Positions 9,688 to 36,949 of a DNA stretch of 64,000 nt are shown here, piece after piece. Position numbers and translations under genes: made by a program. Within the stretch, counting starts at the first letter, position 1. Every line of letters starts with the position of its first letter. The notes beneath the pieces are model-generated. The model was not told the DNA's origin, searched no databases, and saw only the letters and a program-made list of their open reading frames with translations. The DNA is from an uncultured virus (IMG/VR IMGVR_UViG_2713896875_000003) (Duplodnaviria > Heunggongvirae > Uroviricota > Caudoviricetes), in the IMG/VR virus record IMGVR_UViG_2713896875_000003, positions 1 through 64,000 of that record. One strand, given 5' to 3'.

Positions 9688-9706
9688 AATTAAAATGGAG
9701 GAAATA

Positions 9707-14229: not shown

Positions 14230-14490
14230 ATGTTTGATTTATCTGGTTTAGCAAATAATATTTCCTCACAGGTGATTATACTATTGGTGATTTTAGGACT
14301 GGTATCCTTAGTTGTAGCGGTTGCAACACAAGGGGCCGCACGAGGAATTGCGACAGTCTGCTTAATCTTAATTTTAATCGCGTTGGTTTTAGTGTTAAAA
14401 GATGCTGAAAAAATTGGTACCTGGTTGAAAGACTTAATTTTCAAACCAAATGCCGGCTTTATTTTCCCAATAAAAGGTTGGCGATTTTGA
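14230..14490 (+). CDS. TcpD-like small two-TM protein
   Basis: Two hydrophobic helices; RBS GGAG. Confidence 0.6.
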   Translation: MFDLSGLANNISSQVIILLVILGLVSLVVAVATQGAARGIATVCLILILIALVLVLKDAEKIGTWLKDLIFKPNAGFIFPIKGWRF

Positions 14491-18910: not shown

Positions 18911-21256
18911 TTGAACAAGAAATTATTAATTAAAACAGCCTTACTGTTTCTAGTAGGCTGTTTTTTTGTTGTTACACAAACTACATCTGTTAATGCAGCA
19001 CCTAAACCTGATGAAAATAAAGTTATTGTTACAGAGCCGACTACTAATGTAGATACAATTTATGATACTTACAAAGATAATGCTTTTGAGTTAATGACTA
19101 AGGAAAAAGAGAAAGAATCTGTAACGGGTTTTAATGAAGCTATCACTAATGCTTCTGCGACAATAAAGACTTTTGTTTGGTCAATGGTAAAAGGACTCGG
19201 AGAGTTTAATGCAGTTATGGTAAAAACACTATTTAGTATGGATATTATAACTGCTATTAAGCAACCGATTATGAACCTAACGTCTAGCATAGCAACTAAT
19301 ATGTTGGGCATTGCAGGAACGATTGGTATTGCCTTTGTCTTTGTTATTTTAGGTGTAAAATTTATTGGACAACAACGATACAAACGGTTTTTTGGTATTT
19401 TTTTAATGACGATTCTTATTTTTACAGGTCTTTCCGTCCTAAAAGATGCCAACACATCCAATTCTTTGTTTGATATGATGTTTAGTGTAGATAAAGAAGT
19501 TGAGACCGCATTTGTGAATATTAATCCGGTCTTAGGTGATGTTAGTGTACCAATGACAGAGAAAGGGAAAGATAAGAACGGAAATGAAGTAGAGCAAAAA
19601 TTATCTGCAGATCAACGAGCAAAAAGTGCAGGAAATTTAATTGCTTCACGTGTTTTTTACACCAATGTGTATGAACCTTACTTGCTCATGAACTACGGAA
19701 CAAGTGATGTTAATAAAATCCGTAAGAAAACAGTGAAGTATAAAGACAAAGAATATGATCGAATCAACTTATTGTTAGACAACGATATGAATAGCGAAGA
19801 AAATGATAAGTTAATGGAAGAAGTTGTAAATTACGAAAGTAAAGACTTAAAGAACCGATCAATTATGTATTATAACAACTGGACCAATACTTTTTATGGT
19901 TTGTTTTACCTGATAGTTAACTTCATTCAAACAGTGGTGTATTTTCTGCTAAGTTTCTTACGATTAATTATTGCTGTCATTCAATTGTTCCTATTGCCGT
20001 TGTTACCGTTATTGTTGTTCGCAGGACTCTTTTTAACTGAAACCAACGTCTTTGCGAATTACTTTAAAACCTTTGGCATGACTATTTTTATGAAGGGAAT
20101 GGTTGGTTTTGCGACTATTTTCTTTGCAAGTTTCTTATCACTAGGGTTTCAATTAAGCAATCAGACAGAGAACGTGTGGCAGAAGATATTAACGATACTT
20201 ATTTATCTTCTTACACCGCTTGGCTTGTATGTCTTCCGGAAATTCTTTGCTAATCTTGTCACGGGACGTGTTTCACTTTCTGATGGTGTCGGGTTTATCG
20301 GAAATCCTTTTGGCACAGAAGCTAATATGCGTAGAGCGGCAAAAGAACAAAAACAAGAGAATAAGGAGCGCAGGAAACAGGCACAAGAAGAACGTAAAGC
20401 AGCTATTAAAAAACGTCAAGAAGAAGCAAGGAAACATGGTAAAGCAGAAACTGGCTTAAAACAACGACCATTAAATAAAGAACAAGAAAAACGTAGTGCG
20501 CTACGCCGTGAGTTGAAGCCAAGGCCTCAACATAAAGCGCCAAATGCTATCGAAAAAGCACAAGAAGGATTAAGACAAGCGCACGAAAAAGGACGTATGC
20601 AAGAACAGAAATCTGAAGAACAACTCAAACGGCAGCAACATGAATCAGCTCGTCAAAAAGAATATGAAAAAGATCGATTGAAAAAACAGGAATCACTTAA
20701 AAAAATTAATGATCAAAGCGACGAATCAACCAATTTAACAGCTTTAAGAAATCAAAATCGGCGTACTGGACAGCGAAGTAAAAAACGCGAAACAGGTCAT
20801 CAAACACTTATGAAACGACAAGGAGAAAAAGTACTTCAACCAACAAATAAACCAAAAGATATGAAAAAACAAGTGGTTGCTCGTAGTCCAAGACGAACAG
20901 GACAACCAACGACTCGTCAAAATATCCAACCAAAAGTAGCGGCCCAAATGGTCAAACGAAGTGGTGGAACGTTGGGAAGTAATCCTGCCTATCGACGTCC
21001 AGAAGTACGTAAAAAAATGGATCAAGTGAAGCAAGTAACGCAAGTTGATGTACCTCAAACGCATTCTACACCACAACGTGTACAACCCAAGGTAAATGAG
21101 CCAATCACACGTATGAATAGACATAATACGCCAATAATTAAGAAAGAAAAGAGAACTAAACAATCACCAGTTGTTCGCAGAGAACGCAAGAAACCTGGTA
21201 CACAGAAGATAACAAACAAACCTAAAGGAGTGAGACAACCTCGTGCAAGGAAATAA
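18911..21256 (+). CDS. VirB6/TcpH-like polytopic membrane protein with basic C-terminal tail
   Basis: Signal peptide, multiple TMs, long K/R/Q-rich tail. Confidence 0.8.
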   Translation: MNKKLLIKTALLFLVGCFFVVTQTTSVNAAPKPDENKVIVTEPTTNVDTIYDTYKDNAFELMTKEKEKESVTGFNEAITNASATIKTFVWSMVKGLGEFNAVMVKTLFSMDIITAIKQPIMNLTSSIATNMLGIAGTIGIAFVFVILGVKFIGQQRYKRFFGIFLMTILIFTGLSVLKDANTSNSLFDMMFSVDKEVETAFVNINPVLGDVSVPMTEKGKDKNGNEVEQKLSADQRAKSAGNLIASRVFYTNVYEPYLLMNYGTSDVNKIRKKTVKYKDKEYDRINLLLDNDMNSEENDKLMEEVVNYESKDLKNRSIMYYNNWTNTFYGLFYLIVNFIQTVVYFLLSFLRLIIAVIQLFLLPLLPLLLFAGLFLTETNVFANYFKTFGMTIFMKGMVGFATIFFASFLSLGFQLSNQTENVWQKILTILIYLLTPLGLYVFRKFFANLVTGRVSLSDGVGFIGNPFGTEANMRRAAKEQKQENKERRKQAQEERKAAIKKRQEEARKHGKAETGLKQRPLNKEQEKRSALRRELKPRPQHKAPNAIEKAQEGLRQAHEKGRMQEQKSEEQLKRQQHESARQKEYEKDRLKKQESLKKINDQSDESTNLTALRNQNRRTGQRSKKRETGHQTLMKRQGEKVLQPTNKPKDMKKQVVARSPRRTGQPTTRQNIQPKVAAQMVKRSGGTLGSNPAYRRPEVRKKMDQVKQVTQVDVPQTHSTPQRVQPKVNEPITRMNRHNTPIIKKEKRTKQSPVVRRERKKPGTQKITNKPKGVRQPRARK

Positions 21257-21257
21257 T

Positions 21258-23501
21258 ATGTTTAACAATGGCTTGCTACAACCAAAGAAACCGCCAATAG
21301 GGCAAGAACAACAAAAAATGACTCGCTACCACCAACTCCGACTAGTCTTTGGATTAGTCGGAGTTCTTTTATATCCTTTTGCGATTTTAGGTAGTATTCC
21401 ATTACTAATTGGTCTAGCGGTTGATAAAAGAGACAAGGCTGCAAATGTATTTGATATGGATTATGAGAGTTTTTTGAAACGAAATAGTATTGTCTTTCTT
21501 AGTTTTTCAGCTGTGTTATTTGTAATAAATGTTTTTGCATTTATCCTCTGGATTCCCAGAGGGTATCTGTCTGCGTATCTTCTTTTCCCCTTAAATCTTC
21601 TTCATACAGCACTTCGTTTTAATTGGGAGACAATAGTCGCTTTGCTTATTGGATCAAGTGGAATGGGGGCCATTTTTTTGGCATTTTCTTCATTTGTGGC
21701 AAAACGAAAAGTTATTTCAAAGGAAGACGAACGGAAGAAAGTGACGGAATCTAAAGAATACAAAAATAGGCAAAAAAATAAATTTGAAGAGTCACAACGC
21801 TTTACTGATGAACAAGAAAAAGAATACCAAGAAGCAGTAGAAAGTGTTGATATTGACAAGTATAAAGAACTATCCAACCAATTATTACTTGGTATGAGTG
21901 AGTTCGGGTTGTCATATATTATGAACTTTTCAGAGTTCAATCAACACGCCCTTATTCCCGCAACCACTGGTTCAGGGAAAACAACGTTACTTCAATTACT
22001 CGTCCAACACGCAGTCAAATTTAATTTTCCGGTGATATTGATTGATGGAAAAGGCGCTCGAGATACATTAGAAAGTATGCGAGAAATTGCCAAATTTTAT
22101 GACAAAGAAGTGCATGCTTTTACGGATGATGGCGATATGAGGTACAACCCAGTAGAGCATGGAAATGACATATCTATTCGGGATAAGTTAGTGTCTTTAG
22201 CCGAAACAGAAAGTGTCTTTTATTCAGGCGCAGCGAAAGCTCTTTTGCAAGTAACAATTCAATTGTTAGACGAGTTTAAAGGAGCCAAGGTTACTTTATC
22301 TGGAGACACTCGTACGACAGAAACCGTTGAACGAAGTCTACCATTTGTTCAACGATTTTTACTTCCGAGAAATGTTTTACACTTATTTGCGGATGCGATT
22401 TTACCAAACAATCCCAAACTATTTGAGATTGAAGTAGAAAAGAAAATACAAAAACCTAAGAAAAAATCAGTGAAAGAAGGAAGCGAGATACTGCCTGATT
22501 CAGACCTTGATAAAGAAGAAAAAGAGGAAGATTCACAAATTAAGAACAGTAAATTTAGAAACATTTCCCAACTAGGAATAGCACAAAAAGAAACGGAAAC
22601 GATTGTCCTTAATCCAGAAACATTAGATTTAGACTCGTACTATTTATTACTAAAACGAAACCTAAGATATTTGCCAACAGACAAAGAAACAGGAGAAAAT
22701 ATCAAACAAAAATTGTTCGAACGATTATTTATTCGTTATGAACATAAAGATTCACCGTTTTATTTGTATGCCACATCAGAAGCATTACAGACAAACATTA
22801 ACATGTTATTAGACAGTGAGTTAGGAAAATTATTTGATACTAAAAACGCAAAAAATGTTCTCGATGTGCAAGAAATTGTCAATCAACGAAAGTTAGTTTA
22901 CGTATCGTTCAATGGATTGATTTACAAAGAATATATCCGCACTTTAGCGCAAATGTTAGTCGGAGACGTAAATTATTTTGCTTCTGAAATGTATCGAAAA
23001 AATGTGAAACGTGAAGTCCTTGTGATTTTTGATGAACCTGCTTCTTATCTAAATGAAACGTTTATTGATATGGTAAATAAAGGAAGGGGTGCAGGTGTTT
23101 ACGGTATTTTTACTCCTCAAACGATGGCAGATATTGCAAAATTAGGCGATAAATTAATGGAACAACTTGTCGGAAATGTGAATACTTTGTTCATTGGAAA
23201 GACCAACGAAAAAGGTGAAGCCGAGTATTGGAGTGAAACAATGGGAACGTACCAAGACATTGATGTAACTTCAGTTACGGAACAAGAAGATGGTTATTCA
23301 GATGTTGGAAAATCTGATTGGTCAGGAGATAGAGGAACCAAACGTAATGTAGATCGCTTCAAAATTAATCCAAACAAGATAAAAGAATTGCGTACAGGGG
23401 AGTTTATTATTTATCGTACAGCAGAAAATGTAAACCTTCCACCACAGAAAGTTTACGTGCGAAACGCATTAAATTGGCTTAAAAATAATAGTAAGATTTA
23501 G
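21258..23501 (+). CDS. traW: Type IV coupling protein (TraW/VirD4-like)
   Basis: N-terminal TMs, Walker A ATTGSGKT, LIDGKG, Walker B VIFDE. Confidence 0.88.
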   Translation: MFNNGLLQPKKPPIGQEQQKMTRYHQLRLVFGLVGVLLYPFAILGSIPLLIGLAVDKRDKAANVFDMDYESFLKRNSIVFLSFSAVLFVINVFAFILWIPRGYLSAYLLFPLNLLHTALRFNWETIVALLIGSSGMGAIFLAFSSFVAKRKVISKEDERKKVTESKEYKNRQKNKFEESQRFTDEQEKEYQEAVESVDIDKYKELSNQLLLGMSEFGLSYIMNFSEFNQHALIPATTGSGKTTLLQLLVQHAVKFNFPVILIDGKGARDTLESMREIAKFYDKEVHAFTDDGDMRYNPVEHGNDISIRDKLVSLAETESVFYSGAAKALLQVTIQLLDEFKGAKVTLSGDTRTTETVERSLPFVQRFLLPRNVLHLFADAILPNNPKLFEIEVEKKIQKPKKKSVKEGSEILPDSDLDKEEKEEDSQIKNSKFRNISQLGIAQKETETIVLNPETLDLDSYYLLLKRNLRYLPTDKETGENIKQKLFERLFIRYEHKDSPFYLYATSEALQTNINMLLDSELGKLFDTKNAKNVLDVQEIVNQRKLVYVSFNGLIYKEYIRTLAQMLVGDVNYFASEMYRKNVKREVLVIFDEPASYLNETFIDMVNKGRGAGVYGIFTPQTMADIAKLGDKLMEQLVGNVNTLFIGKTNEKGEAEYWSETMGTYQDIDVTSVTEQEDGYSDVGKSDWSGDRGTKRNVDRFKINPNKIKELRTGEFIIYRTAENVNLPPQKVYVRNALNWLKNNSKI

Positions 23502-23521: not shown

Positions 23522-23760
23522 CGAGAGTAGCCATAGAGTAAGCGTAGAGTAAGTATAGAGTAGGTATAGAATAAAAAATCTAGGAGAGCGGTCCTCGGCG
23601 CTTGGTATAAAAGGCTTTCTCCGCCTGCAAAATTCCTGACCATTTTCGCTCAACGTGGGTTAAAACCCCCATTAAGCGAAAATGGTCAGGAATTTTGCAA
23701 CTACGAAAAAAATACCAAGCGCCGAGGACAAACAGAATAGAGTAAAAAATAGAATGAGTA
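23522..23760. other. Origin of transfer (pAD1 oriT2-like)
   Basis: About 140-bp inverted repeat 23591-23729 (perfect 25-bp inner arms 23626-23650/23675-23699) next to tandem TAGAGTA-type direct repeats, between coupling protein and relaxase. Confidence 0.8.
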
Positions 23761-24021: not shown

Positions 24022-24807
24022 TTGAAACCATTACTATATAACTATTACATTGATTACACTAAGAAAGATAAAACAAGGCTAATTATTTTATGTCTACTCC
24101 ATGAATTAAGAGTTATCTCAGTTCAACAATTAATTGACTTTTTCCAAATTGAACGGTTATCAGCAGAAAGCACAGTTTATAAGCACTTAAATTTATTAAA
24201 AACAGATGGATTAATTGCCCGATCAAAAAATGGAATGCACACGTTCTATTACCTAACAAAAGAAGGGCATAATTACATTGGTGGGTACTACACCTTGCCA
24301 AAAGTTCCTGAATACAATTTACAACACCACTTACAAATTAATGATTATCTGATAAAAATGTTGGAACTTTGTAATAACCACCCGCACCTTAAAGCGGTAG
24401 TATCAGAGCGTCGCAAAGTATATGAAGTAAAGGACGAGAAGAAAAATCAAAAAGGCGTAAAATACTTTGTTCCTGACTTCATTTTTATGTTTTTGGATAG
24501 TATTGGACGAGAAGTAGAGTGGCAATTTGAAATAGAATTAACACTAAAGACAAAACGACGTTATAGTCAGGGTGTGTTTCCAAAATACATTAAACATTTA
24601 AAAAATTATGAAGATGCACGCTTAATTTATGTAACACCTAGTTCAATCATTAAAGAAGAACTTGATATGTTTAAAGAATATTTTATTGACAAAGAAGGGG
24701 ACGAGTACAAAGAAGTGTTTGATCGATTGCATGTTTTTTCAGCTGAAGAATTTGAAAGTGAACTGAAACGATTACTAGAAAAAGATAAATTCATTAATTG
24801 GGAGTGA
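24022..24807 (+). CDS. traX: MOBC-family relaxase (TraX-like, replication-relaxation family)
   Basis: wHTH N-terminus (YYLTKEG), HHLQIND, PD...EIELTLK restriction-fold motif; adjacent to oriT. Confidence 0.85.
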   Translation: MKPLLYNYYIDYTKKDKTRLIILCLLHELRVISVQQLIDFFQIERLSAESTVYKHLNLLKTDGLIARSKNGMHTFYYLTKEGHNYIGGYYTLPKVPEYNLQHHLQINDYLIKMLELCNNHPHLKAVVSERRKVYEVKDEKKNQKGVKYFVPDFIFMFLDSIGREVEWQFEIELTLKTKRRYSQGVFPKYIKHLKNYEDARLIYVTPSSIIKEELDMFKEYFIDKEGDEYKEVFDRLHVFSAEEFESELKRLLEKDKFINWE

Positions 24808-25518: not shown

Positions 25519-25678
25519 AGATTCCCTNNTCGTNTATCAGTCACTCGGCGAGTATAACCTAAAACATGTTCTGTCGGAGGTCAAGGGCAAGTGGCATCGG
25601 CAAGCCGACCCTTGNCCTCCGACAGAACATGTTTTCTAGTCGGTTATGCCGAACGACCGATATACGAAAAGGGAATCT
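25519..25678. repeat. Long inverted repeat (Frpo/sso-like hairpin 1)
   Basis: 27-bp inner arms 25561-25587/25609-25635 plus outer arms. Confidence 0.85.
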
Positions 25679-25892
25679 AACCAGAATTTCCTCTCTGATC
25701 TTTGAAAACTGAAAAGCGAAATCAAACAAACAGGCCTTCGTCTAAAAACGAGCCTAATCAAACCTTAGGGGTTGCACCCCTAACACCTGGCGCCTCACTC
25801 CCTCAACCGAAAAGGTTGGTTGGAAAGGCGTTGACCAAAAAATAGCTATCTATTGGTTGTTTGAAAATAAAAATTGAAAGAAGGAAAGCAAA

Positions 25893-26159
25893 ATGCTAAC
25901 AACAAAAGAAAAAAACAGATTAAAAAAAATGGTAGAAGGAAACAAAACGTTTCATTATTCTTATGTCGATAGACTTAGACAAGATGTAAGATATTACGTT
26001 AATCAATGTGAATCAGCTGTTAAAGCTAGAGAAAGCATGGAAATCTTAGAATTTATCTACAGTCTATTTTCTGATAAAGAGTTACCAGAATGGTACACAG
26101 AAGCCGACCTTGAAAATGATAAAAAATCAATTGAAAAATTGGAACGCTGGGCAGCTTAG
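25893..26159 (+). CDS. Hypothetical protein
   Basis: 88 aa, RBS AAGGA. Confidence 0.7.
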   Translation: MLTTKEKNRLKKMVEGNKTFHYSYVDRLRQDVRYYVNQCESAVKARESMEILEFIYSLFSDKELPEWYTEADLENDKKSIEKLERWAA

Positions 26160-26191
26160 CTGCTCAGCAACAATCAGAAAGGGCGATTAAC

Positions 26192-26692
26192 ATGAAATTT
26201 ATCAAAGATGTAACGACATTAGAAGAATTGAAACGCGTATATAAAAAGCTAGCTTTAAAGTACCACCCAGACATGGGCGGTACTGATAAAGAAATGGCGC
26301 AAATAAATAACGAGTATGAAGCGTTGTTCGATAAGCTTAAAAATACACACAAAAATAAAGAAGGTGAGTACTACCAAAAAGAAACGACAGAAACACCGCA
26401 AGAATGGCAAGAAATCATACACAAGTTGTTAACGCTAAAAATGGAAAATGTTTCAATTGAAGTGATAGGCGCATTCTTATGGGTATCAGGGAACACCAAG
26501 CCTTATAAAGAAGAGTTAAAAGCTTTAAATATGAAATGGAGTAACAACAAAAAGTCCTGGTATTTAGCCCCCGATGGATATAAAAAACGCAGTAAGAAAA
26601 AATACAATATGAGCGATATTCGCAATATGTATGGTTCGCAGGTAGTTAAAGAAGAACAAGCCAAACAAAAGACATTAACAGCAACAGCCTAA
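26192..26692 (+). CDS. J-domain (DnaJ-like) protein
   Basis: YKKLALKYHPD...MAQINNEYE J-domain. Confidence 0.85.
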   Translation: MKFIKDVTTLEELKRVYKKLALKYHPDMGGTDKEMAQINNEYEALFDKLKNTHKNKEGEYYQKETTETPQEWQEIIHKLLTLKMENVSIEVIGAFLWVSGNTKPYKEELKALNMKWSNNKKSWYLAPDGYKKRSKKKYNMSDIRNMYGSQVVKEEQAKQKTLTATA

Positions 26693-26704
26693 GGAGGAAG
26701 TAAA

Positions 26705-26953
26705 ATGGAACAACGACGCCCAGTTATTCACACATTAAAAATTGAAACCGAGTTTTTCAAGGCAGTAAAAGAACGGCGAAAAACATTTGAGATAAGAAAG
26801 AACGATCGTAATTTTCAAGTAGGGGATATTTTAATTCTCGAAGAATATATGAATGGCATGTATTTAGATGATGAATGCGAAGCGGAAGTTATTTATATAA
26901 CGGATTATGCACAACGTGAAGGTTATGTGGTGCTAGGAATTGAATTACATTAG
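26705..26953 (+). CDS. DUF3850/ASCH-PUA-like protein
   Basis: HTLKI...KTFEIRKNDRNFQVGD motif. Confidence 0.8.
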   Translation: MEQRRPVIHTLKIETEFFKAVKERRKTFEIRKNDRNFQVGDILILEEYMNGMYLDDECEAEVIYITDYAQREGYVVLGIELH

Positions 26954-27028
26954 TAAAAAATTAGATTATACGTCCAAAGAGGTTTTACCTCTTTGGACGA
27001 CCAAATAAAAAGAAAGAAGGAATCAAGA

Positions 27029-27445
27029 ATGATTAAAACAAGTGCAGTAGGAAGATTAACAAAAAGTTCAGAACTAAGAGTAACGTCAACAGGGAAGGCC
27101 GTTGCCAATTTTGCATTAGCTTGCAAAAGAGAAAGACTTGATAAAGAAGGGAATGCCCAAACGACTTTTATTCAATGTGTAATCTGGGGGAAACCTGCAG
27201 AGGTGTTAGCAAAATATACGCAAAAAGGTTCATTAATTGCAGTAAATGGTGAATTGCAATCACGTTCTTATGATGATCAACAAGGACAAACGCATTATGT
27301 TACAGAATTAGTCGTATCAGGCTTTGAATTTTTAGAATCAAAAGAAACTGTACAAAATAGAGAACAAAAACAACAAATGCCAGAAATGGCGAACGCCGAA
27401 CCATTTTATGGTATGGATGATATGGAACCGCCAGTTTATCAATAA
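27029..27445 (+). CDS. ssb: Second single-stranded DNA-binding protein
   Basis: AVGRLTK, FIQCVIWGK, GELQSRSY OB-fold motifs. Confidence 0.88.
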   Translation: MIKTSAVGRLTKSSELRVTSTGKAVANFALACKRERLDKEGNAQTTFIQCVIWGKPAEVLAKYTQKGSLIAVNGELQSRSYDDQQGQTHYVTELVVSGFEFLESKETVQNREQKQQMPEMANAEPFYGMDDMEPPVYQ

Positions 27446-27468
27446 GATTTATCTGAAGGAGGGAGGAT

Positions 27469-28053
27469 ATGAAAAAGTTAATCGGTAAAAAGTGGCTGCT
27501 GCTTACAGCAGTAGCCACTTTTTTATTATCAGGATGCGCAAGTCTTGAACAAAAAGCACAGAATAGTGTAAAAGAAGTTACTGGAAATTTTACTCAAACT
27601 ATTTCAAACGATCAACGTATACCAGCTGACTTTGTACGACACGTAGACGGTGACACAACGGTTTTGAGGATTGACGGAAAAGAACGAAAGGTTCGCTTTT
27701 TATTAATTGACACACCCGAGACGGTCAAACCAAACACAAAAGTTCAGCCCTATGGTTTAGAAGCTAGCAAACGCACAAAAGAGCTTTTGTCTACTGCTTC
27801 AGAAATTACGTTTGAATATGATGAGGGCGATAAAACAGATTGTTACGGGCGAGCGTTGGGCTACATATTCGTAGATGGAACATTACTACAAAAAACGCTT
27901 GTAAGTGAAGGGTTAGCACGTGTGGCCTATGTAAAAGAGCCTAACACTAAGTATTTGGAAGAACTAGAGCAAGCCCAAGAACAAGCTAAAAGTGAATCAC
28001 TCGGAATCTGGAGTATACCAGGTTATGTGACAGGAAGGGGATTTCAGCCATGA
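27469..28053 (+). CDS. Thermonuclease (SNase-fold) lipoprotein
   Basis: Lipobox LLSGC; VDGDT, VRFLLIDTPET, YGRALGY, GLARV. Confidence 0.9.
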   Translation: MKKLIGKKWLLLTAVATFLLSGCASLEQKAQNSVKEVTGNFTQTISNDQRIPADFVRHVDGDTTVLRIDGKERKVRFLLIDTPETVKPNTKVQPYGLEASKRTKELLSTASEITFEYDEGDKTDCYGRALGYIFVDGTLLQKTLVSEGLARVAYVKEPNTKYLEELEQAQEQAKSESLGIWSIPGYVTGRGFQP

Positions 28054-28372
28054 AACAAACAGAACAAGGGAATTTTGAAGAGTTTTGTTGGTACTTATAT
28101 GAACCCAAAATTGTTACACCGAAGGAATGTACCAAACATATCATAATAGAGAAATCGTAAAGAAGTTTTCACAGATACGGAAAGAAAAAATACCAGGTGT
28201 ACACCTGGCTGCCAATAAAATAGAAACGCACAGAAAACCTATATAAAATAGGCTTTCTGTGCGTTTTATGATATAATAATGAAGTAGAAAAGTTATGACG
28301 GTGGCTATCCAATCCGAAAGTGAGGTGGTGCGTATGAGTGTACTTCCAAAATCCAAAGAAAGGAGAAGCCTT

Positions 28373-28474
28373 TTGTCTGCATTAGAAACAATTCAGCTGA
28401 TATTAAGCTTTGGCATGTTTACCATTGCGTTGATTAAGTTGATTGTGGAATTGCTAAAAAACGACAAAAAATAA
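28373..28474 (+). CDS. Type I toxin (TxpA/holin-like), 33 aa
   Basis: RBS AAGGAG, TTG start; MSALETIQLILSFGMFTIALIKLIVELLKNDKK; alternative in-frame ATG at 28334. Confidence 0.8.
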   Translation: MSALETIQLILSFGMFTIALIKLIVELLKNDKK

Positions 28475-28585
28475 CCGTTCATTAACTTTGGCGAGTTAAA
28501 CGGTTATTTTTTAACTATAAACAAATGCCACCGTCTTAAACGGTTCTACACTAGAGAGTTGTGTTAGCGCACAGCTCTCTTTTCG
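28466..28585 (-). ncRNA. RatA-like antisense antitoxin RNA
   Basis: Minus-strand extended -10 TGCTATACT near 28590-28600; bidirectional terminator 28466-28512 overlapping the toxin 3' end. Confidence 0.6.
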
Positions 28586-28684
28586 TTTATAGTATAGCAT
28601 ATTCTAAAAAAAAATACTACTAAACGACCAGGGCGCAACGATCTATACAGACGTGCGCCTTTTTTAGTTCGGGAAAAGGGAATG

Positions 28685-29235
28685 AATCCGTTGTTCCGCG
28701 GCGGTGCGGTAGCCCTTGCTCCAAAACCAACGGATTAACTGCTGCACTCAACACGAGTCAATTAAACGTTCTCTACCCATTCGTTCCGATTGGGGAACGT
28801 TTCCTTTTCCTACTCGTTCCTCGCTTAACGGAAAAGTCCATTGACACGAGTTGTTCCTTGTGGGATCACAAGGAAGCGTTCCGCAGTGATTAACATTTCT
28901 AGTAGGTATTTCATACCTACTAGAAAACAAAGTCAAGGGCGTTCCGGTCAAAAATCCCTTTTCTGATGTCAGAACAGTGTCACGCGACCTTTTTCGTTTT
29001 CAGGACGTTCATTTTGCAGTGTGTAACGTGCTGCTCACTGTTTGCTACAGTACCACAGCCAGTCGAAAAAACAAGGGTATATAAACGAGCAAGCTCGCCC
29101 TTGTTTTTTCTTTATGTCTATGGTCCTTCCACGGCACAGCGAGCGACACGAACACACTGGCGAAAATGAACAACCTAAACAAAAACGAAAAAGGGGGTAG
29201 ACTACACCGTTTGACGAAAAGGAATTTTTGACCGT
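28685..29235. repeat. Structured intergenic repeat copy A (contains Frpo-like hairpin 2)
   Basis: 28685-28880 is about 90% identical, ungapped, to 32116-32311; followed by a long fold-back ~28945-29235. Confidence 0.85.
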
Positions 29236-29308
29236 CCAGCTTCACTTCCTCAAACGCCTAACAAAAATGGTTGTTCAAAACCCAAAAAACTGAAAGGAGG
29301 TGGTTAAA

Positions 29309-29494
29309 ATGAATGAGACACAATTAAAACTTGACCTAGAAAAGGCACAACTGGAATACCAAAAATTAAGCCAAGCAATCAATGAAAATGATACTGTCAC
29401 GCTGTTATTAAATTATGGTTGTTTAAAAAATGCCAATGACCGTTTAAACCAACTATCATTTTTGTTGAACCATATTGAATGGGAGGACGTGTAA
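29309..29494 (+). CDS. Hypothetical protein
   Basis: RBS AGGAGG; 61 aa from ATG 29309. Confidence 0.65.
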   Translation: MNETQLKLDLEKAQLEYQKLSQAINENDTVTLLLNYGCLKNANDRLNQLSFLLNHIEWEDV

Positions 29495-29496
29495 GA

Positions 29497-29670
29497 ATGG
29501 CTGAAAAAAAGAAAAAATACTGTGTGACAATTGTTGAAACCTTAGAGGTAGCTGTATATGTTTATGCAGAAAGCGAAGAACAAGCACATGAATTAGTTTC
29601 TAACATGTATTACGACCAAGAAATAATCTTAACAGAAGAAAATCACGAAACAACAGAATTTATCATTTAA
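29497..29670 (+). CDS. DpnD/PcfM-like protein
   Basis: YCVTIVETL...AESEEQA...YYDQEIIL pattern. Confidence 0.7.
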   Translation: MAEKKKKYCVTIVETLEVAVYVYAESEEQAHELVSNMYYDQEIILTEENHETTEFII

Positions 29671-29732
29671 AACAACGAAAGAGGTGAAAAAGATATTTTA
29701 GAGGTATTGAATTATATCCACGAAAAAAGCAC

Positions 29733-29795
29733 AAAAAAAGAAACCTTTTGCCACTAACAAAAGATTTCTAAAACGTTATGCATGTTTAATACTGT
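29733..29795 (-). ncRNA. Candidate antisense sRNA 1
   Basis: Minus-strand TTGTCA-17-TATACT (29830-29802) and intrinsic terminator 29733-29769. Confidence 0.5.
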
Positions 29796-29893
29796 AAAAC
29801 AAGTATAACGTATCTCATGACCTTTGACAAGTGAATTTGCCCCAACCTCTTATTCATAAGAGGTTGGGCTAACAAAAGAAACGAGGGAACGTT

Positions 29894-30673
29894 ATGGACT
29901 TTCAAAATATACAAACTGTAAAAGAATTGACACACGCACTCAAACAATACAATCAAAATCTAGCAACCACTATTTTTGACGACACACAAGGTTATATCAG
30001 TGTAGCTTTTAGAAAATAAAGCATTGAAAGAAACGGAAAAAACTTCCAGTTTTTGTGTTTCTATCCTAATTATAAAGTAGCCCTTTATCCAGTCGAGACG
30101 TTACTTTCTTACCTTGAAAAGCTACCAGAACAAGCCACCATTGCGATTAAAGACCCAGACGGTAACTATTCGTCTCTTTATCTAACAATTGATGAAACGA
30201 TAGATAAAGGAACTAAATACAAGTGGCTAGTAATTAGCGATAAACTTTCTTATGAGCGCTTTTTCCTAACAAGCACATTGACTGCACAAGAACAAGCACT
30301 TGAAAAAATGCTAAAAGAACTAGAAACCGAGCATGACAACACGGTCGAATATATCCACAATTGGCTATGCAAACAAAATGATGAATCTCTTTTTCAAGGT
30401 ATTCTAAAGGAAGATAGAACCATAAAAGGCTCTGTCACGTATTGCATGGGAAAAGCCCAAGAACAAGCCGAAAAACGACCAAATGCTATGGTAATGGTCA
30501 CAGACGAGGTGGCATTTAGTTGGATAAAGGAATATTTCATACTTGAAAAACTACCCGAAATGAAAGCAATCGGTAAGGTAGTGACGACTGCCAAAAAGAA
30601 ACCGAGCAAAAAAGAAGAGTCTAAACCTCAAAGAAAAGAGGTGGACGAACAAGTAAAATTGTTCGAGTTGTAA
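29894..30673 (+). pseudogene. PcfK-like (AcrIIA9-related) gene with premature stop
   Basis: RBS GAGGG, ATG 29894, TAA 30017-30019, same frame continues; C-terminal IHNWLC...KTIKGSVTYC-like...DEVAFSWIKEYF PcfK-like domain. Confidence 0.7.
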
Positions 30674-32016
30674 TGAGTATTGATAAAAAAATACAAAAAC
30701 CATTAACCCCACCGAAAGCCTTTTTTGATTGGTGTACGTCACAAATACCTACGTATCAATGGAAAAACAAAAAGGAAACAATTCTTGCGAGTTCTCGCAA
30801 GAATTGCCCTACTATCAAAAAGCGATTAACTAAGAGATCGAAGCTCTCTTATCCTACAAAATTTTATTCATTCGGTGTTATCCTTGTCAGTAAAAGGCGA
30901 ATAGAAATTCAATCCCACTGTTATTGGCAAACAATAAAAGACGGTAAAGAAACGCTTATCTATGAACATTCAAATCTTGAACGTTTTTCAAAGGATACCC
31001 ACCTTAAAGCCCATTGCCGTAATGGTTACTGGTATGAGGGGTTGATGTCAAATTATGGTTTTATGAGTAGTGCTTATACAAATACGGTATTTTATCCAAA
31101 TAACTGGCAAGAAAAACTAACCACTGTATCGGAGTTAAAGTACTTACAGTTACCTGAAATAGAGCGCCATGAACTGGCACATATTTATAAATACCGAAAC
31201 GAAATCGAATTTTTACAAAAGATAGGCGCAACAACTCTTGCGAATGAAATCATTTTTGACGACTATCGCAACGTTTTTGGACTGTATTTTCATAAAGCAG
31301 ATATGAGAGTAATTACTAAGAAATGGCTAAAAGCGAATAAGCAAAAATTAAAAACAAGCAATCCAACCTTTCATGAATTCATGTTAGAAAAAACGTTAAA
31401 AGAACGAAATGCGCCTATGATAAACGAAATAGAAAAGTACGTACATTATTCGCAAATCAAGCAATTACCGAAAGAGGTGAATTTAACCAAGTTTCAAAAA
31501 TGGTTTATGCGAAAAGGGGAACGTTTTGACTACTATATGGACTACTTACACATGCTAGAAGAGTTGAACACCCCACTTAATAACGATAGTGTATTGTATC
31601 CAGAAAACTTACAAGTAGCTCACGATAACGCTATGAACACGCTAAACCTTTTGAAAAGTGAGATTGAAGAAAAGCAGTATCAAGAACGGAAAAACCAAAT
31701 TAAAGCGTTAGAAGCTGAAATTGACGACTTGCTTTTTCTCACACCACATTCATTACAAGAAATCATTCAAGAAGGAAGTATTCTACGCCATTGTGTGGGC
31801 AGTCAACATTATATCGAACGACATACACAAGGAAAAACAACGATTGTTTTTATCCGAAGAAAAGAAAAGCCAGATATGCCTTACTTCACATTAGAATATC
31901 GAAATCAACAGGTTATACAAATACAAGGAAAATGTAACCGTCAGGAAGTACCAGAAAAGATAAAACAAGCAGTTGAACGTTGGAAACAAGTCGCTCATAC
32001 AGCCATACCTTCCTAA
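30673..32016 (+). CDS. PcfJ-like protein
   Basis: YYMDYLHM, LYPENLQVAHD, EGSILRHCVG, PYFTLEY motifs. Confidence 0.85.
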   Translation: MSIDKKIQKPLTPPKAFFDWCTSQIPTYQWKNKKETILASSRKNCPTIKKRLTKRSKLSYPTKFYSFGVILVSKRRIEIQSHCYWQTIKDGKETLIYEHSNLERFSKDTHLKAHCRNGYWYEGLMSNYGFMSSAYTNTVFYPNNWQEKLTTVSELKYLQLPEIERHELAHIYKYRNEIEFLQKIGATTLANEIIFDDYRNVFGLYFHKADMRVITKKWLKANKQKLKTSNPTFHEFMLEKTLKERNAPMINEIEKYVHYSQIKQLPKEVNLTKFQKWFMRKGERFDYYMDYLHMLEELNTPLNNDSVLYPENLQVAHDNAMNTLNLLKSEIEEKQYQERKNQIKALEAEIDDLLFLTPHSLQEIIQEGSILRHCVGSQHYIERHTQGKTTIVFIRRKEKPDMPYFTLEYRNQQVIQIQGKCNRQEVPEKIKQAVERWKQVAHTAIPS

Positions 32017-32115
32017 ACAAACGAAAACAAGCGGTAGAGAAAAGAGGTAAAGATTAAACGTTAGGAATGCTAAGAAAAGAGTTTTCTTAGCATTCCTAAC
32101 CGAAATCTAGGACAA

Positions 32116-32620
32116 AATCCATTGTTCCGCGGCGGTGCAGTCGCCCTTGCTCCAAAACCAATGGATTTTCTGCTGCACTCAACACGAGTCAATTAAACGT
32201 TCTATTCCCATTCGTGCCGACTGGGGAACGTTTCCTTTTCCTACTCGTTCCTCGTTTAACGGAAAAGGACATTGACACGAGTTGTTCCTTGTGAGACCAC
32301 AAGGAAGCGTTTCACAGATTAAAGTTTTTTCTGAAGCAGTTTCACTGCTACAGAAAAAAGGCGTTGGTTCTATGGCATTTTTCTGTCACTCGTCCTCTTA
32401 TTGCGGTTATCATTTCTTCAGTGAGCCGGCCTTGTGTACTTGCGAATCATACAACAGCCAGTCGAAAACACAAGGGTAAAATGCACGAGCAAGCTCGCCC
32501 TTGTGTTTTCTTTGTGTCTGATGTCTGTTCTCTGCGCACCCAAAACCTCAAACTCACTGAAGAAATGGATCATAACAGCAAACAAAGAAAGGAGAGGACC
32601 ACAGAAAAATACCGAACCAA
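32116..32620. repeat. Structured intergenic repeat copy B (contains Frpo-like hairpin 3)
   Basis: Paralogue of 28685-29235 with compensatory changes. Confidence 0.85.
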
Positions 32621-32705
32621 CGAAGTTCAAAAGAAGCACCCCTTCCTAAATCTTCAAAAAAAATGAGTTTTGAAAAAAATAAAAAACAGAAAGAGGCGAG
32701 TAAAA

Positions 32706-33434
32706 ATGACTAGACTTGAACAAGCACAAGGAAAATTGCAACGACTAAAAAGAGAAAGCGAAGAAATGCACCACTTAATCAGGGCGGAACATGACCGTAT
32801 CCCTTTTGGACAGCCTAACATTATTGGCCGTGGGGACATTTATAAGAAAGTAAATGGCTATCATGATCGAGCAATTAAATTACTGAAGGAACAAGAAAAA
32901 CAAGAAAAAAGAGTGGAAATGCTGGAAAAGGTAGAAGATTTTAAGGAAAAAAACGAGCTAATTAAAGACGTTCATGTGGTCGGTAAATCAAGTTATGCGA
33001 CGGTTGGCGCAAAAACAAGCGTCAATAACATTGACTACTTTAAAAATGAACTAAAAGAGCTTGAAAAAGCCAACGAGAAAGCAAAGGCTTATAACAAGAC
33101 GAAGCCTGCCATTAAGGCGAGAACCTACGGCGCAGCAATCACGAAACTAAAAAATAAAATTGCGACCCTGGAACAAATGAAAGAAGCGGATGAAAATAAG
33201 GTGATGAGTGAGAAAACAAAAGAACTGATAGAAAGCGGTGCAGTAACACAATGGAAGAAAAAGCCGATATTCTATTTCGTTAAAGGGTTGCGAAAAGTAG
33301 CACTAGAAATTGACGAAAATGGAGATTTCTTCATTTCTAACTATTATCCGGCTTGTACAGATGCAGATAAGGAATTTATTAATAAGTTATTAGATCCTGC
33401 AGCTGAAAGCACAAAAAAAGAAACCTTTTGCTGA
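32706..33434 (+). CDS. Coiled-coil hypothetical protein (IPFGQP motif reminiscent of DUF3560)
   Basis: RBS GAGG, ATG 32706; family call is weak. Confidence 0.65.
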   Translation: MTRLEQAQGKLQRLKRESEEMHHLIRAEHDRIPFGQPNIIGRGDIYKKVNGYHDRAIKLLKEQEKQEKRVEMLEKVEDFKEKNELIKDVHVVGKSSYATVGAKTSVNNIDYFKNELKELEKANEKAKAYNKTKPAIKARTYGAAITKLKNKIATLEQMKEADENKVMSEKTKELIESGAVTQWKKKPIFYFVKGLRKVALEIDENGDFFISNYYPACTDADKEFINKLLDPAAESTKKETFC

Positions 33435-33472
33435 AGACAAAAGATTTCTAGGACGTTAACTATTTATAGTCA
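33413..33472 (-). ncRNA. Candidate antisense sRNA 2
   Basis: Minus-strand TTGAAT-17-TATACT (33507-33479); terminator stem identical to sRNA 1. Confidence 0.5.
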
Positions 33473-33620
33473 TGAATAAGTATAGCGTTCCTTAGAAAAA
33501 TATTCAATGGGTTCCTGCCATAACGATGGAGTTATGGCAAGGATTCATTGCAACTCATAGAATAGAACAATTATCTAACAGTAACGAATTAAAAAAAATA
33601 TTGCTTTTGGAGGAATACAA

Positions 33621-34153: not shown

Positions 34154-34299
34154 ACGGGTACGACACGTTTCCCTATAAATGTATAAACATGAAATGGGAG
34201 AATTTATCCTTCTGGATAAATGATAACGGGTACGACACGTTTCCCTATAAATGTATAAACATGAAATGGGAGAATTTATCCTTCTGGATAAATGATAAC
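34154..34299 (+). repeat. Exact tandem duplication (72-bp period) of the intron 5' end
   Basis: 34154-34225 = 34226-34297. Confidence 0.95.
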
Positions 34300-36949
34300 T
34301 AATAGTTCGATAGTTGGAATGAAAGCCGTCATGTTGGCTGAAACAACTAGTCTGATACTCCTACATGCGTGAAATTTTAACAGAAATTCCAGGTATGAAG
34401 TTAGGTGAAGTCGGCTGAACAATGCCTAAGTGAAATGTACAGTTCATAAGGCAGAGGATAGGTCGGGACGCTATAAACTATCTATGGTGAGAATGTTTCC
34501 AGCGAGAAACTGACGAACTTGCGAATGTACGGATCTATAGTCCGACGTTTATCGAAAGAAAACGGCTTACGTTATGTAAGGAATATTACCGAAGAGTAAG
34601 AGTCTGTGTTATGAAATTCGGGATAGTTAACAATGAAACTATAAATATTCAGGTCCACAGTAAGCACCTAAGGGTAGATATGCAAAGCTAGAACTATTGG
34701 AACGTGGAAAGCGAGAAACACTTATGCCAAACGACTGTTATCGGAGTGTTGAATATAAGATTTTACAAATCGAAATTTCTTAATTCTCGTGAGAGTAGGG
34801 GCACAGTACTGATGAAGCGTGTAATGAACGTGGAGGGATAGCCCCAAGACTTGTTCTTTGAAAAATGAATACTGCTAAATGAAACTCACAGGGTCTGGTA
34901 AGAGGATGGGACTATTTAGAATAGGAGAAGTAACCATCGGTGAGTACTGAATTAAGATATTATGAGTATTACAATATGCAAGAAACTTTTGATTGGTTAT
35001 ATCAAAGAAGTTTAGAGAATCGAACAAAGGGAATCAATTTGTTCGATATTATTATATCAGAACGAAATATATTGTTAGCCTACAGAATAATTAAATCAAA
35101 CACGGGCTCAAAAACAGCTGGTGTAGATAATCAAACAATCTCAGATTATAAAATGAAGAATAAGGCTCAGTTTATTCGAGAAATTCGAGAGAGTTTAGTT
35201 GATTACAAGCCAGAAATGGTTAGAAGGGTTGAAATTCCCAAACCCAATGGAAAAACAAGGCCTTTAGGAATACCCACAATGAGAGATAGGTTGATTCAAC
35301 AAATGTTTAAACAAGTGCTTGAACCTATTTGTGAAGCACAATTTTACAAACACTCTTATGGATTTCGACAAAACCGCTCGACAGAACATGCAATTGCTAG
35401 GTGTAACTTTGTTGCCTACGCTTGTAAATGTCATTATGTGGTTGATGTAGATATAGAAGGATTCTTTGACAATGTTAGTCATTCAAAAATGATTAAACAA
35501 CTGTATACCATTGGTGTAAAGGACAGACGTGTACTGGCGATTATCTCTAAAATGCTAAAAGCTCCCATTAAAGGAATTGGCTCTCTAGATAAAGGAACAC
35601 CACAAGGTGCGATTTTATCTCCCTTATTATCTAATGTAGTATTAAATGATTTAGATTGGTGGATTGCTAATCAATGGGAAACGTTTCAAAGCAGATACCC
35701 TTATAAAGATAATGCGTATATGTATAGTGCTCTAAAGAAAACCAAATTAAAAGAAATGCATATCGTTAGATATGCGGACGACTTCAAGATTTTTACAAAT
35801 ACTCCAAAATCAGCAATCAAAATATTTCATGCTGTTAAAGGATATTTGAGAAATCAACTTTCACTAGATATTTCAAAAGAAAAATCAAAAATAACGAATT
35901 TGAGGAAACGATACTCAGAATTTCTAGGCTTTGAGATAAAAGTTGAAAAGCAAAGAAAAGGGAAATATGTTTCTATCTCCAGAGTATCTAGAAAAGCCAA
36001 AAAGAAAATAAAGAAAGACGTCCGTCAAAGAGTAAAACGAATTCAACGTTATCCGACATTTGAAAATATCAAAAACTACAATTTATTTGTCAAAGGAATT
36101 CAAAATTATTATCAAAAAGCAACTAGAGTAAATCTAGACTTTTCAGATATATATTACTCTTGTTTGCCAGCCCTATTCAATCGTTTAAAATTTATTGGGA
36201 AATATGAAATACCTAGAAGTCCACCTTTGGTGTACAAGAAAATTTACAGTTTGAACCATCGAACTTTTCGAGTAAATGGAGAGTACCTTTATCCAATTGA
36301 ATGTATTAAATGGGATAAAGCATGGCCATTTAGATCAACAGTAAATAATTACACCGAACAAGGAAGACTAGAGCGTATCAAAATGTTAAAACCAAAAATA
36401 GGCTCAGAATTGATAAAAATGGGTCAAAAGTATTCAGAAAATCAATCTATTGAATTTCTGGATAATAAACTCTCTCGTTACTCTATGCAAAATGGTAAGT
36501 GTGCTGTTACAGGAGAATTTCTAACCTCTGAGATAGCACACGGACACCATATAGTACCTAAGAAGCAAGGAGGAACTGATGATTATCAAAATATAGTCAT
36601 AGTTCACGAGTGGATTCATAAATTAATCCATGCCAAAACAAAGCAAACGATTGAAGAATATTTCAATGTGCTTCAGTTAAATGAAAAGCAATTGAAGAAA
36701 CTCAACAAATATCGAAAAGAATGTAATTTAGCAGAAATTCATTTGAAGTAAAGAAGAAGTTGGAACGCCGTATGCGGTGAAAGTTGCATGTACGGTGTGG
36801 AGCAGGGGAAAAGCCGGAGAGCGAACTATTATCATTAGCTAAGGTAATAGACAATCAAAGGCTTACCTATTGCTATGGGGGAAAAGCCGGAGAGCGAACT
36901 ATTATCATTAGCTAAGGTAATAGACAATCAAAGGCTTACCTATTGCTAT
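34158..36949 (+). mobile_element. Group II intron (probably bacterial class B)
   Basis: 5' end GTACGACACGTTT; domain V ACGCCGTATGCGGTGAAAGTTGCATGTACGGTGT near 36765-36798; 3' end CTTACCTATTGCTAT; internal RT ORF. Confidence 0.92.
34940..36751 (+). CDS. ltrA: Intron-encoded reverse transcriptase/maturase/HNH endonuclease
   Basis: RPLGIP, SYGFR, GTPQG, RYADD; C-terminal HHIVPKKQGG...HKLIH HNH. Confidence 0.95.
   Translation: MSTELRYYEYYNMQETFDWLYQRSLENRTKGINLFDIIISERNILLAYRIIKSNTGSKTAGVDNQTISDYKMKNKAQFIREIRESLVDYKPEMVRRVEIPKPNGKTRPLGIPTMRDRLIQQMFKQVLEPICEAQFYKHSYGFRQNRSTEHAIARCNFVAYACKCHYVVDVDIEGFFDNVSHSKMIKQLYTIGVKDRRVLAIISKMLKAPIKGIGSLDKGTPQGAILSPLLSNVVLNDLDWWIANQWETFQSRYPYKDNAYMYSALKKTKLKEMHIVRYADDFKIFTNTPKSAIKIFHAVKGYLRNQLSLDISKEKSKITNLRKRYSEFLGFEIKVEKQRKGKYVSISRVSRKAKKKIKKDVRQRVKRIQRYPTFENIKNYNLFVKGIQNYYQKATRVNLDFSDIYYSCLPALFNRLKFIGKYEIPRSPPLVYKKIYSLNHRTFRVNGEYLYPIECIKWDKAWPFRSTVNNYTEQGRLERIKMLKPKIGSELIKMGQKYSENQSIEFLDNKLSRYSMQNGKCAVTGEFLTSEIAHGHHIVPKKQGGTDDYQNIVIVHEWIHKLIHAKTKQTIEEYFNVLQLNEKQLKKLNKYRKECNLAEIHLK

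Follow-up and report, generated by a model that had tools for sequence, protein, structure and literature searches.

How the establishment and anti-defence genes of Gram-positive conjugative plasmids are switched on is an open question. Experimental demonstrations of transcription from incoming single-stranded DNA (ssDNA) are confined to the IncF and IncI plasmids of enterobacteria, and the regions upstream of establishment genes in plasmid pLS20 are unexplained. The question arises again for positions 1 to 64,000 of the IMG/VR record IMGVR_UViG_2713896875_000003 (this whole stretch of 64,000 nucleotides is called the window), in which three long hairpins, here numbered 1 to 3, each head a gene cluster that follows the relaxase gene. 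The original prediction held that the minus strand of each hairpin, when single-stranded, folds back to build a promoter leading into the plus-strand genes. We find that the hairpins belong to a widespread, undescribed Gram-positive family that reaches far beyond pheromone plasmids, and that compensatory changes preserve their fold, with a bias toward the strand that is the template for the genes downstream. Judging from sequence, we consider it an even call whether they act as an ssDNA promoter or priming site recognized by RNA polymerase. If they do, a plasmid could turn on protective genes or copy itself right after transfer.

Three hairpins with a common apex

The apex pattern CAAGGG-N10-30-CCCTTG occurs three times in the window, always on the plus strand (Table 1), compared with 0.01 occurrences expected from shuffled sequences; three were reached in none of 100 shuffles. 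The apex consists of CAAGGG, 8 or 9 unpaired bases, a mini-hairpin of 4 or 5 base pairs (bp) around CAAG, and CCCTTG, and the stem of the mini-hairpin reads either TCGGC/GCCGA or CGAGC/GCTCG. The hairpins therefore lie where they had been predicted and with the predicted apex, but their extents had been drawn too short: the actual structures are bulged and span 140-160 nucleotides (nt).

Hairpin 1 contains N bases (25528-25529, 25534 and 25616), one of which falls in the -35 position of the right arm, and most of its analysis therefore relied on L001, a plasmid that is 96% identical. Hairpins 2 and 3 belong to a 470-nt unit that is repeated at 28685-29210 and 32116-32600 (units B and C) and whose minus strand includes the Rfam Enterococcus-1 element. 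The hairpins themselves gave no match to any Rfam family (cmscan, E values up to 1). We found no such hairpins described for enterococcal or Inc18 plasmids, in a literature search that did not cover most subscription journals or the older work on single-strand origins (sso). A coding interpretation of the apex, based on AAGGG-N4-ATG in hairpin 3, was rejected, since the ATG is missing from hairpin 2 and from many relatives.

A family beyond pheromone plasmids

A scan for the apex pattern in one genome per species yielded at least 122 stretches, many of them chance matches or an unrelated repeat. From sequences with the full apex, 18 were chosen by eye to build a covariance model, R1. In the window, R1 detects only the three hairpins, with 56-79 bits on the minus strand versus 17-26 bits on the plus strand (hairpin 1, 55.8 minus and 26.2 plus; hairpin 2, 74.4 minus; hairpin 3, 78.9 minus and 17.4 plus). 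Matches at E values up to 1e-4 occur in 25 of the 151 Lactobacillales genomes sampled and in 29 of the 151 sampled from Clostridia, and the 90 R1 matches collapse to 61 distinct sequences.

The strand of the model, which is complementary to the downstream genes and corresponds to the minus strand in the window, is termed T-sense. Over the 61 sequences, the T-sense consensus reads GTCAAGGG-CG, then a covarying mini-hairpin of 3-6 bp, then CG-TTCATTTTA-CCCTTGAC. Even within the "invariant" stem, one copy shows a compensatory change (CAAGAC/GTCTTG). A covariance model across related plasmids had been proposed as a check of the original prediction. By this check the family is conserved and includes a copy in pCF10, and the spacing of the promoter hexamers is kept in enterococcal-type copies; the -10 hexamer is weak in the family as a whole.

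Conservation of the fold and its strand preference

Double changes are seen in 9 of 16 apex pairs in the seed alignment of 19 sequences. For the entire hairpin we compared 10 enterococcal-type copies, which include hairpins 2 and 3 and copies from Inc18 plasmids, pCF10, Vagococcus and others, with hairpin 1 treated apart. A 47-pair consensus structure is 88.4% paired in these copies, versus 79.3% after column shuffling and 30-47% in slid controls. None of 500 shuffles equalled the observed value, a count that is not a probability because the sequences are related. Both sides change in 22 of the 47 pairs, including 11 of the 20 pairs in the lower stem.

The fold also distinguishes the two strands. 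Among the 61 distinct matches, the T-sense strand is the more stable in 43 cases, 16 cases favour the opposite strand and 2 show no difference, and G:T pairs favour T-sense by 121 to 49. When the consensus is held fixed, cells with G:U outnumber those with A:C by 24 to 4 (8 sequences) or 33 to 17 (10 sequences). The strand chosen by R1 rests mainly on the asymmetric apex, and selection bias toward G:U is possible in the 17 modelled pairs. Folding each strand as DNA, another check that had been suggested, was done for 86-nt segments around hairpins 2 and 3. Both strands fold better than shuffled sequences and the minus strand folds better than the plus strand (hairpin 2, -18.1 versus -14.4 kcal/mol, z -5.3 versus -4.0; hairpin 3, -17.9 versus -16.4 kcal/mol, z -3.9 versus -3.6).

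Promoter-like geometry on the template strand

The minus-strand hexamers on which the original prediction was based can be read directly in all three hairpins: TTGACC (25584-25579), 17 nt and TAGGTT (25561-25556) in hairpin 1; TTGTTT (29074-29069), 16 nt and TACTGT (29052-29047), with the extended -10 sequence TGTGG, in hairpin 2; and TTGTGT (32473-32468), 16 nt and TATGAT (32451-32446) in hairpin 3. The opposite arms carry TCTAGT, GTCCTT and TCTGTT, respectively, with no TAnnnT at 16-18 nt, and so lack a -10, as had also been noted. No plus-strand sigma-70-like site with at least 9 of 12 matching positions is present in the three intergenic units.

This arrangement is common to the 10 enterococcal-type copies. 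The T-sense 3' arm has TTGNNN in nine of them (the tenth, L170, has TTTTGT), and the spacer is 16 nt in all 10. TG at -15/-14 is found in 9/10, TRTG in 8/10 and TAnnnT in 9/10. The consensus helix spans -17 to -12, and the T at -12 lies in an A-U pair that is formed in every copy. From -11 onward the sequence is outside every consensus helix, forming an internal loop of ~10 nt that is followed by the 20-bp lower stem. Hairpin 1, as represented by L001, and four copies from small plasmids follow the same plan, with the A at -11 unpaired. The modelled geometry resembles that of a pre-melted sigma-A promoter, or of an open promoter complex.

These features suggest a possible mechanism. The minus strand, as ssDNA complementary to the downstream genes, would fold into the bulged hairpin. 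Its upper stem would restore a duplex -35 (TTGNNN beside the conserved apex), a spacer of 16-17 nt and an extended -10 (TRTG). The stem would be paired through -12, open for ~10 nt from -11, and closed again in the lower stem of ~20 bp. RNA polymerase could then begin on the 5' arm and leave the hairpin into the plus-sense SSB/nuclease genes, the AcrIIA9/PcfJ genes or the genes of the third cluster. The resulting RNA may be an mRNA, a primer for synthesis of the complementary strand, or both, as in F Frpo and rolling-circle sso. The fold-back promoter that had been proposed is supported in part, by covariation, by the bias toward the template strand, by its geometry, and by the Inc18 and rolling-circle contexts described below; we infer the use of the hairpin by RNA polymerase on ssDNA, and with it ssDNA-dependent transcription.

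Hairpins and the Enterococcus-1 element

In the minus-strand direction, an Enterococcus-1 element lies ~160 nt past the -10 of hairpin 2 and of hairpin 3, and the hexamers point toward it on the same strand. An unlikely alternative is that the hexamers are a sigma-A promoter on double-stranded DNA (dsDNA) that reads leftward into a noncoding RNA containing this element, and that the inverted repeat is a terminator or insulator, formed either by the GC mini-hairpin and a T-rich tail or by an outer stem with A and T tracts. A terminator scan is partly consistent with this: at 29100-29087 and 32500-32487 of the minus strand it flags the 5-bp mini-hairpin with the T-rich tail, and nothing else. 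The outer stems of hairpins 2 and 3 do have A and T tracts, but with an interior of 19-20 nt, and hairpin 1 has no T-run. Clostridial relatives located 26-176 nt after genes of the same sense would also suit this alternative. A dsDNA promoter, however, needs neither a complementary arm of 60-70 nt kept by compensatory changes nor a bubble exactly at -11, and minus-sense RNA starting from the hexamers would exclude the 5' arm and the apex. The hexamers are weak on duplex DNA (none of the three sites reaches 9/12), and no Enterococcus-1 element lies downstream of hairpin 1 or of the Inc18 copy in an Rfam scan.

Available RNA data bear on the same region. In contigs of two RNA libraries from a 95-97% relative, the hairpins are contiguous with the downstream genes at a depth of 13-46. 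One contig, corresponding to 28626-28836, has a depth of ~2180 versus 13-21 in its neighbours, which would suit the dsDNA alternative; contig data carry neither strand nor ends, and the contigs break within this repeated element. The abundant contig ends at 28836 and the next one, which contains the hairpin, has a depth of 13.5, so the abundant RNA has no visible start at the hairpin. The RNA data neither support nor refute any of the explanations considered here. Enterococcus-1 itself may act as another ssDNA module, or it may be a small RNA of high abundance.

Copies in other mobile elements

In the Inc18 plasmid pEFS36_2, a hairpin is found at 12184-12248 with T-sense on the minus strand. 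A nick motif of the MOBQ type of origin of transfer (oriT), for which a consensus is in print as it is for pC194-type motifs, is on the same strand at 14359-14369, 2.1 kb away. The order is zeta toxin gene, hairpin, plus-strand genes for a hypothetical protein, a DnaJ-domain protein and another hypothetical protein, two minus-strand genes, the oriT motif, the MobQ relaxase gene and tra genes. The three genes that follow the hairpin run toward oriT. Provided that the strand nicked is the one we assume, this hairpin belongs to the strand that is transferred and lies 2.1 kb inside the leading region, with genes directed toward oriT as in F.

Rolling-circle plasmids give a second context. The minus strand of the pC194-type plasmid L155 carries the hairpin at 1565-1501, followed by the nick motif at 1346 and then by the gene for Rep_1 (1144-44). 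The hairpin is thus ~155-220 nt upstream of the double-strand origin (dso) and on the strand of the nick motif, for which pUB110 served to calibrate the strand. T-sense coincides with the sense of rep or mob in all four small Rep/Mob plasmids (L155, L157, L158 and L159). These small-plasmid copies, which are relatives and not the window hairpins themselves, occupy the place and strand of a single-strand origin.

The pheromone plasmid pCF10 (L202) has one hairpin, on the plus strand at 9697-9761, heading the PcfM/AcrIIA9/PcfJ cluster next to Tn925. The hairpin and the Acr/PcfJ cluster retain their mutual orientation, and no second hairpin precedes the ssb cluster of pCF10. Within pCF10, the segment 5874-10002 that contains PcfM/AcrIIA9/PcfJ and the hairpin runs opposite to the clusters of relaxase and ssb and adjoins the Tn916-like insertion. 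In L161, the hairpin is likewise directly upstream of an establishment or anti-defence operon, in template sense.

Given the strand-specific ssDNA fold and the presence of copies in non-conjugative contexts, namely small rolling-circle plasmids and insertion sequences (IS), the hairpins might instead be single-strand initiation signals for vegetative theta replication. They would then provide sites for a primosome or a primer on the template of the lagging strand and would have no relation to conjugation. The ssiA signal of pAMbeta1 is a precedent for lagging-strand initiation of this kind. We consider this very improbable: it does not explain the repeated placement upstream of establishment or anti-defence operons in template sense (the window, the Inc18 plasmid, pCF10 and L161), and the promoter-like geometry suggests RNA polymerase rather than PriA.

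Some Clostridial copies follow ldh, murC or recombinase genes, and the same-sense genes end 26-176 nt before the hairpin. Carriers among Clostridial IS elements (L173, L199 and L200 of genome G195; L171, L172, L177 and L185) encode rve-like transposases of 450 amino acids or IS6-like transposases. In G195, an IS element of 1.75 kb is present in 12 copies, in which the hairpin is followed by TTGACG-17-TAGAAT facing the end of the element.

The oriT-like region and the transferred strand

Which strand of the window plasmid enters the recipient determines how the hairpins could act. The gap between the coupling-protein and relaxase genes contains direct repeats and a large inverted repeat (Table 1), and from its sequence appears to fit the description of the TraX binding site of pAD1, which a review gives as five direct repeats located 70-120 bp "downstream" of nic. 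In the window, the direct repeats have lower coordinates than the inverted repeat, a placement that is compatible with a minus-strand nick, although the review's wording is ambiguous. The explanation preferred here supposes that this MOBC plasmid transfers its minus strand. In that event, hairpins 3, 2 and 1 would enter late, within the final 9, 5.5 and 2 kb, respectively, and the SSB and anti-CRISPR clusters would enter the recipient last, not first. The last 2-9 kb are the classical place of an sso and would suit priming of the second strand over the entire plasmid, and messages could still be made for genes already entered.

Trailing-end establishment genes, if the minus strand is transferred, would account for the fact that MOBC showed no leading-region (anti-defence) enrichment in a 2024 survey of leading regions and was left out; MOBC, MOBT and MOBP2 elements were all left out of the large leading-region survey.

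Conversely, the plus (coding) strand might be transferred, making the region after the relaxase gene the true leading region, and the hairpins might then be plus-strand priming sites for short primers that end at the apex mini-terminator, leaders that, like EGeRS1 of pLS20, block read-through into establishment operons, or protein-binding sites. The gene content is suggestive of this arrangement, in that SSB, Acr and toxin-antitoxin genes right after oriT and relaxase resemble the content of leading regions. The plasmid pLS20 is reported to transfer the non-template strand of its establishment genes, and has long, GC-rich, repeated upstream regions with no constitutive promoter and with an orientation-dependent block to read-through (PMC8708921). 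Units B and C are similarly repeated and have a G+C fraction of 0.41-0.48 versus ~0.35 for the plasmid, and the plus strand of hairpins 2 and 3 consists of A-tract/GC/T-tract stems followed by T-rich sequence. Moreover, sso1 of ICEBs1 is directly after the relaxase gene (PMC4595007). On the other side, the fold bias favours the minus strand, the plus-strand arms have no -10, the favoured strand of the Inc18 hairpin bears the nick motif, and hairpin 1 has no T-tract. This alternative is, in our estimation, distinctly unlikely.

Evidence weighing against an ssDNA promoter, and a possible wider class

Several observations weigh against an ssDNA promoter or priming site. The R1 seeds are biased toward CAAGGG and CCCTTG, since both were fixed in the scan from which the seeds were selected by eye. 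Across the family the -10 is weak: TAnnnT at 16-18 nt is found in 19 of 61 T-sense arms versus 8 of 61 opposite arms, mean scores are 4.81 for T-sense and 4.70 for the opposite arm (53 matches scored on both arms), and in one Clostridial subgroup it is the other arm that holds the better promoter. Because this test over 61 matches shows no clear difference between arms, the promoter claim rests on the enterococcal-type and rolling-circle subgroups. Many Clostridial copies are inside IS elements, 26-49 nt after transposase genes and in the same sense, where a role at the 3' end of an RNA is equally plausible. In pCF10, the hairpin module is inverted with respect to the relaxase gene and therefore has no template strand in common with the ssb cluster. 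For MOBQ and pC194-type motifs, the nicked strand is the one we presume. If the plus strand of the window plasmid is transferred, the T-sense fold would be absent from the incoming DNA, and the non-template strand is reportedly the one transferred in pLS20 (PMC8708921). Finally, two raw-read RNA runs of the species label gave 0 and 4 reads on the stretch.

The ssDNA promoter or origin may also extend to more kinds of element. It is possible, if on balance somewhat doubtful, that one unnamed structural class recognized by RNA polymerase is common to several kinds of mobile element in Bacillota and beyond: rolling-circle plasmids, in which it would be the sso, Inc18 and pheromone plasmids, in which it would head SSB, anti-CRISPR and further establishment operons, and some IS elements. 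It would be marked by a double-stranded TTGAC box under a mini-hairpin cap that covaries, by a conserved TTCATTTTA-like bulge, and by a stem that is already open at -11. MOBC plasmids would then have their establishment and anti-defence genes at the trailing end, where one element would both prime the second strand and express these genes.

Plasmid and gene setting

The original prediction assumed an enterococcal pheromone plasmid, and this holds: the plasmid is an Enterococcus faecalis pheromone plasmid of the pAD1 type, with a MOBC relaxase in matching relatives. Of the 819 plasmid records that match the 10 kb between 24000 and 34000, 800 come from Enterococcus. The source collection classes the record as a provirus, although it is a conjugative plasmid. 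In an annotated relative that is typed MOBC (NZ_CP136343.1), all genes are on the plus strand, beginning with type IV secretion genes and the coupling protein, then a gap, the "replication-relaxation" relaxase and an open reading frame (ORF) of 167 amino acids (aa). There follow a hypothetical gene, DnaJ-domain, DUF3850, SSB and thermonuclease genes, a toxin-antitoxin locus, and PcfM, an AcrIIA9-family protein, PcfJ and further genes. Pfam matches to the ORFs of the window agree with this order. The genes headed by the hairpins thus include SSB, SNase, DnaJ, DUF3850, PcfM, PcfK/AcrIIA9 family and PcfJ.

Table 1. Hairpins, genes and other features around the three clusters, in window coordinates
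Feature	Position	Strand	Evidence and remarks
Hairpin 1 (bulged, 160 nt)	25519-25678	-	Apex 25582-25614; inverted repeats I2 and I3; R1; folds of L001
Hairpin 2	~29019-29157	-	Apex 29072-29103; R1, fold, consensus structure
Hairpin 3	~32415-32563	-	Apex 32471-32503; R1, folds, alignment with hairpin 2
Enterococcus-1 (RF02973), copy 1	28738-28887	-	cmscan 157.2 bits, E 8.5e-34; direct repeat D1
Enterococcus-1 (RF02973), copy 2	32169-32318	-	cmscan 155.2 bits; D1, 92% identical to copy 1
Coupling-protein gene	21243-23501	+	Left of the oriT-like region
Five 11-bp direct repeats (GAGTARNNATA-like)	23525-23579	.	oriT-like region 23525-23729
Inverted repeat of ~140 bp	23591-23729	.	oriT-like region; repeats D3, I1 and I12 across the region
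MOBC relaxase gene	24022-24807	+	Replic_Relax Pfam E 1.4e-4, below the Pfam cut-off; MOBC typing from annotated relative
LPD11-like/DnaJ-domain/DUF3850/SSB/thermonuclease cluster	25893-28053	+	Headed by hairpin 1; Pfam
64-aa ORF/PcfM/PcfK-like (AcrIIA9 family)/PcfJ cluster	29300-32016	+	Headed by hairpin 2; names from relative and Pfam
254-aa ORF, followed by later genes	32670-33434		Headed by hairpin 3
Rfam rli28	28262-28443	+	
Rfam RatA	28505-28594	-	Converges with rli28
Group II intron	34294-36876	+	Rfam D1-D4 34294-34477, domain V/VI 36763-36876

Other features were observed in the same region. The rli28 and RatA matches, between the nuclease cluster and unit B, resemble an RNA pair of type I toxin-antitoxin-like character; relatives have a type II RelB/YafQ pair at this place. 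The group II intron sits just downstream of the third cluster and holds a 603-aa ORF (34940-36751). A 74-nt direct repeat, 77% identical between its copies, is located at the ends of two gene blocks (29726-29799 and 33406-33479) and contains a terminator-like minus-strand hairpin, AGAAATCTTTTGT...AAAAGGTTTCT, followed by a T-run. All three leaders carry a conserved GCTTCACTTCCTCAAAC-like box (25790-25806, ~29239-29256 and 32626-32645), 40-90 nt before start codons. The sequence CACTTCCT complements AGGAGGTG, which is unit B's ribosome-binding site, and may mask that site.

Comparison with known systems

Among regulatory RNAs, Enterococcus-1 (RF02973) shares strand, repeated unit and plasmids with hairpins 2 and 3, but it is a separate multi-stem element of 150 nt, ~160 nt away. 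In pLS20, the EGeRS1 regions resemble the window units in being repeated, GC-enriched, several hundred bp long, rich in inverted repeats and upstream of several establishment operons, with no recognizable constitutive promoter; the authors rejected an ssDNA promoter for pLS20, whose transferred strand is the non-template strand (PMC8708921).

Known sso elements are recognized by RNA polymerase to make a primer. The T-sense hairpin of L155 conforms to the general description of a single-strand origin, being strand-specific, on the displaced strand and just upstream of the dso. The established families are different. In pE194, pUB110 and pTA1060, which we take to be the prototypes of ssoA, ssoU and ssoT, the best R1 matches are 16.6 bits in pE194, at the rep/ermC terminator and not at palA, and, with filters off, 10.6 bits in pUB110 and 12.9 bits in pTA1060, so the hairpins do not correspond to ssoU or ssoT. 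Unlike ssoA, their apex has no CS-6 (TAGCGT/A), and the loops are CTTG or variable. The right arm of hairpin 1 carries TTATGCCGA at 25645-25653 (plus strand), a 9-mer also found at position 643 of pE194 (L203), where it is presumably the RSB core of palA/ssoA. At the corresponding site, L155 and L158 have CTTATGCCGACGAAAAG; in the small-plasmid copies, the RSB-like 9-mer is on the strand opposite rep, unlike in pE194. Both the sso of rolling-circle plasmids and sso1 of ICEBs1 resemble the present hairpins in being strand- and orientation-specific hairpins of the displaced strand (PMC4595007 for the latter).

The literature describes ssDNA promoters in plasmids of the IncF and IncI groups (PMC11541004; PMC12672017), whose Frpo/ssi elements in IncF and IncI1 leading regions (classes 1-3) offer the closest parallel in mechanism. 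They are long imperfect hairpins on the template strand of early genes, present in several copies per plasmid before ssb and anti-defence genes, with a duplex -35 and spacer, a mismatched -10, and an RNA that serves as message or primer. The hairpins of the window likewise have -35 and -10 hexamers at sigma-70 spacing on one arm, with the other arm as template and the -10 open from -11. They differ in their Gram-positive hosts, in a -10 of the TRTG extended type, and, in this MOBC plasmid, in lying after the relaxase gene instead of ahead of oriT. Those classes are not known to have the apex module of mini-hairpin, TTCATTTTA-like bulge and CCCTTG. The likeness to F Frpo appears to be one of mechanism, not of family. 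The most fitting description of the hairpins is as a novel structural variant among ssDNA promoter or single-strand-origin hairpins, outside the Frpo family. Heading SSB and anti-CRISPR clusters and occupying the sso position in rolling-circle plasmids, the family is a testable candidate switch, and its model can be a marker for locating establishment regulons in Bacillota. It also joins the literatures on single-strand origins and on Frpo-type promoters, which are usually handled separately.

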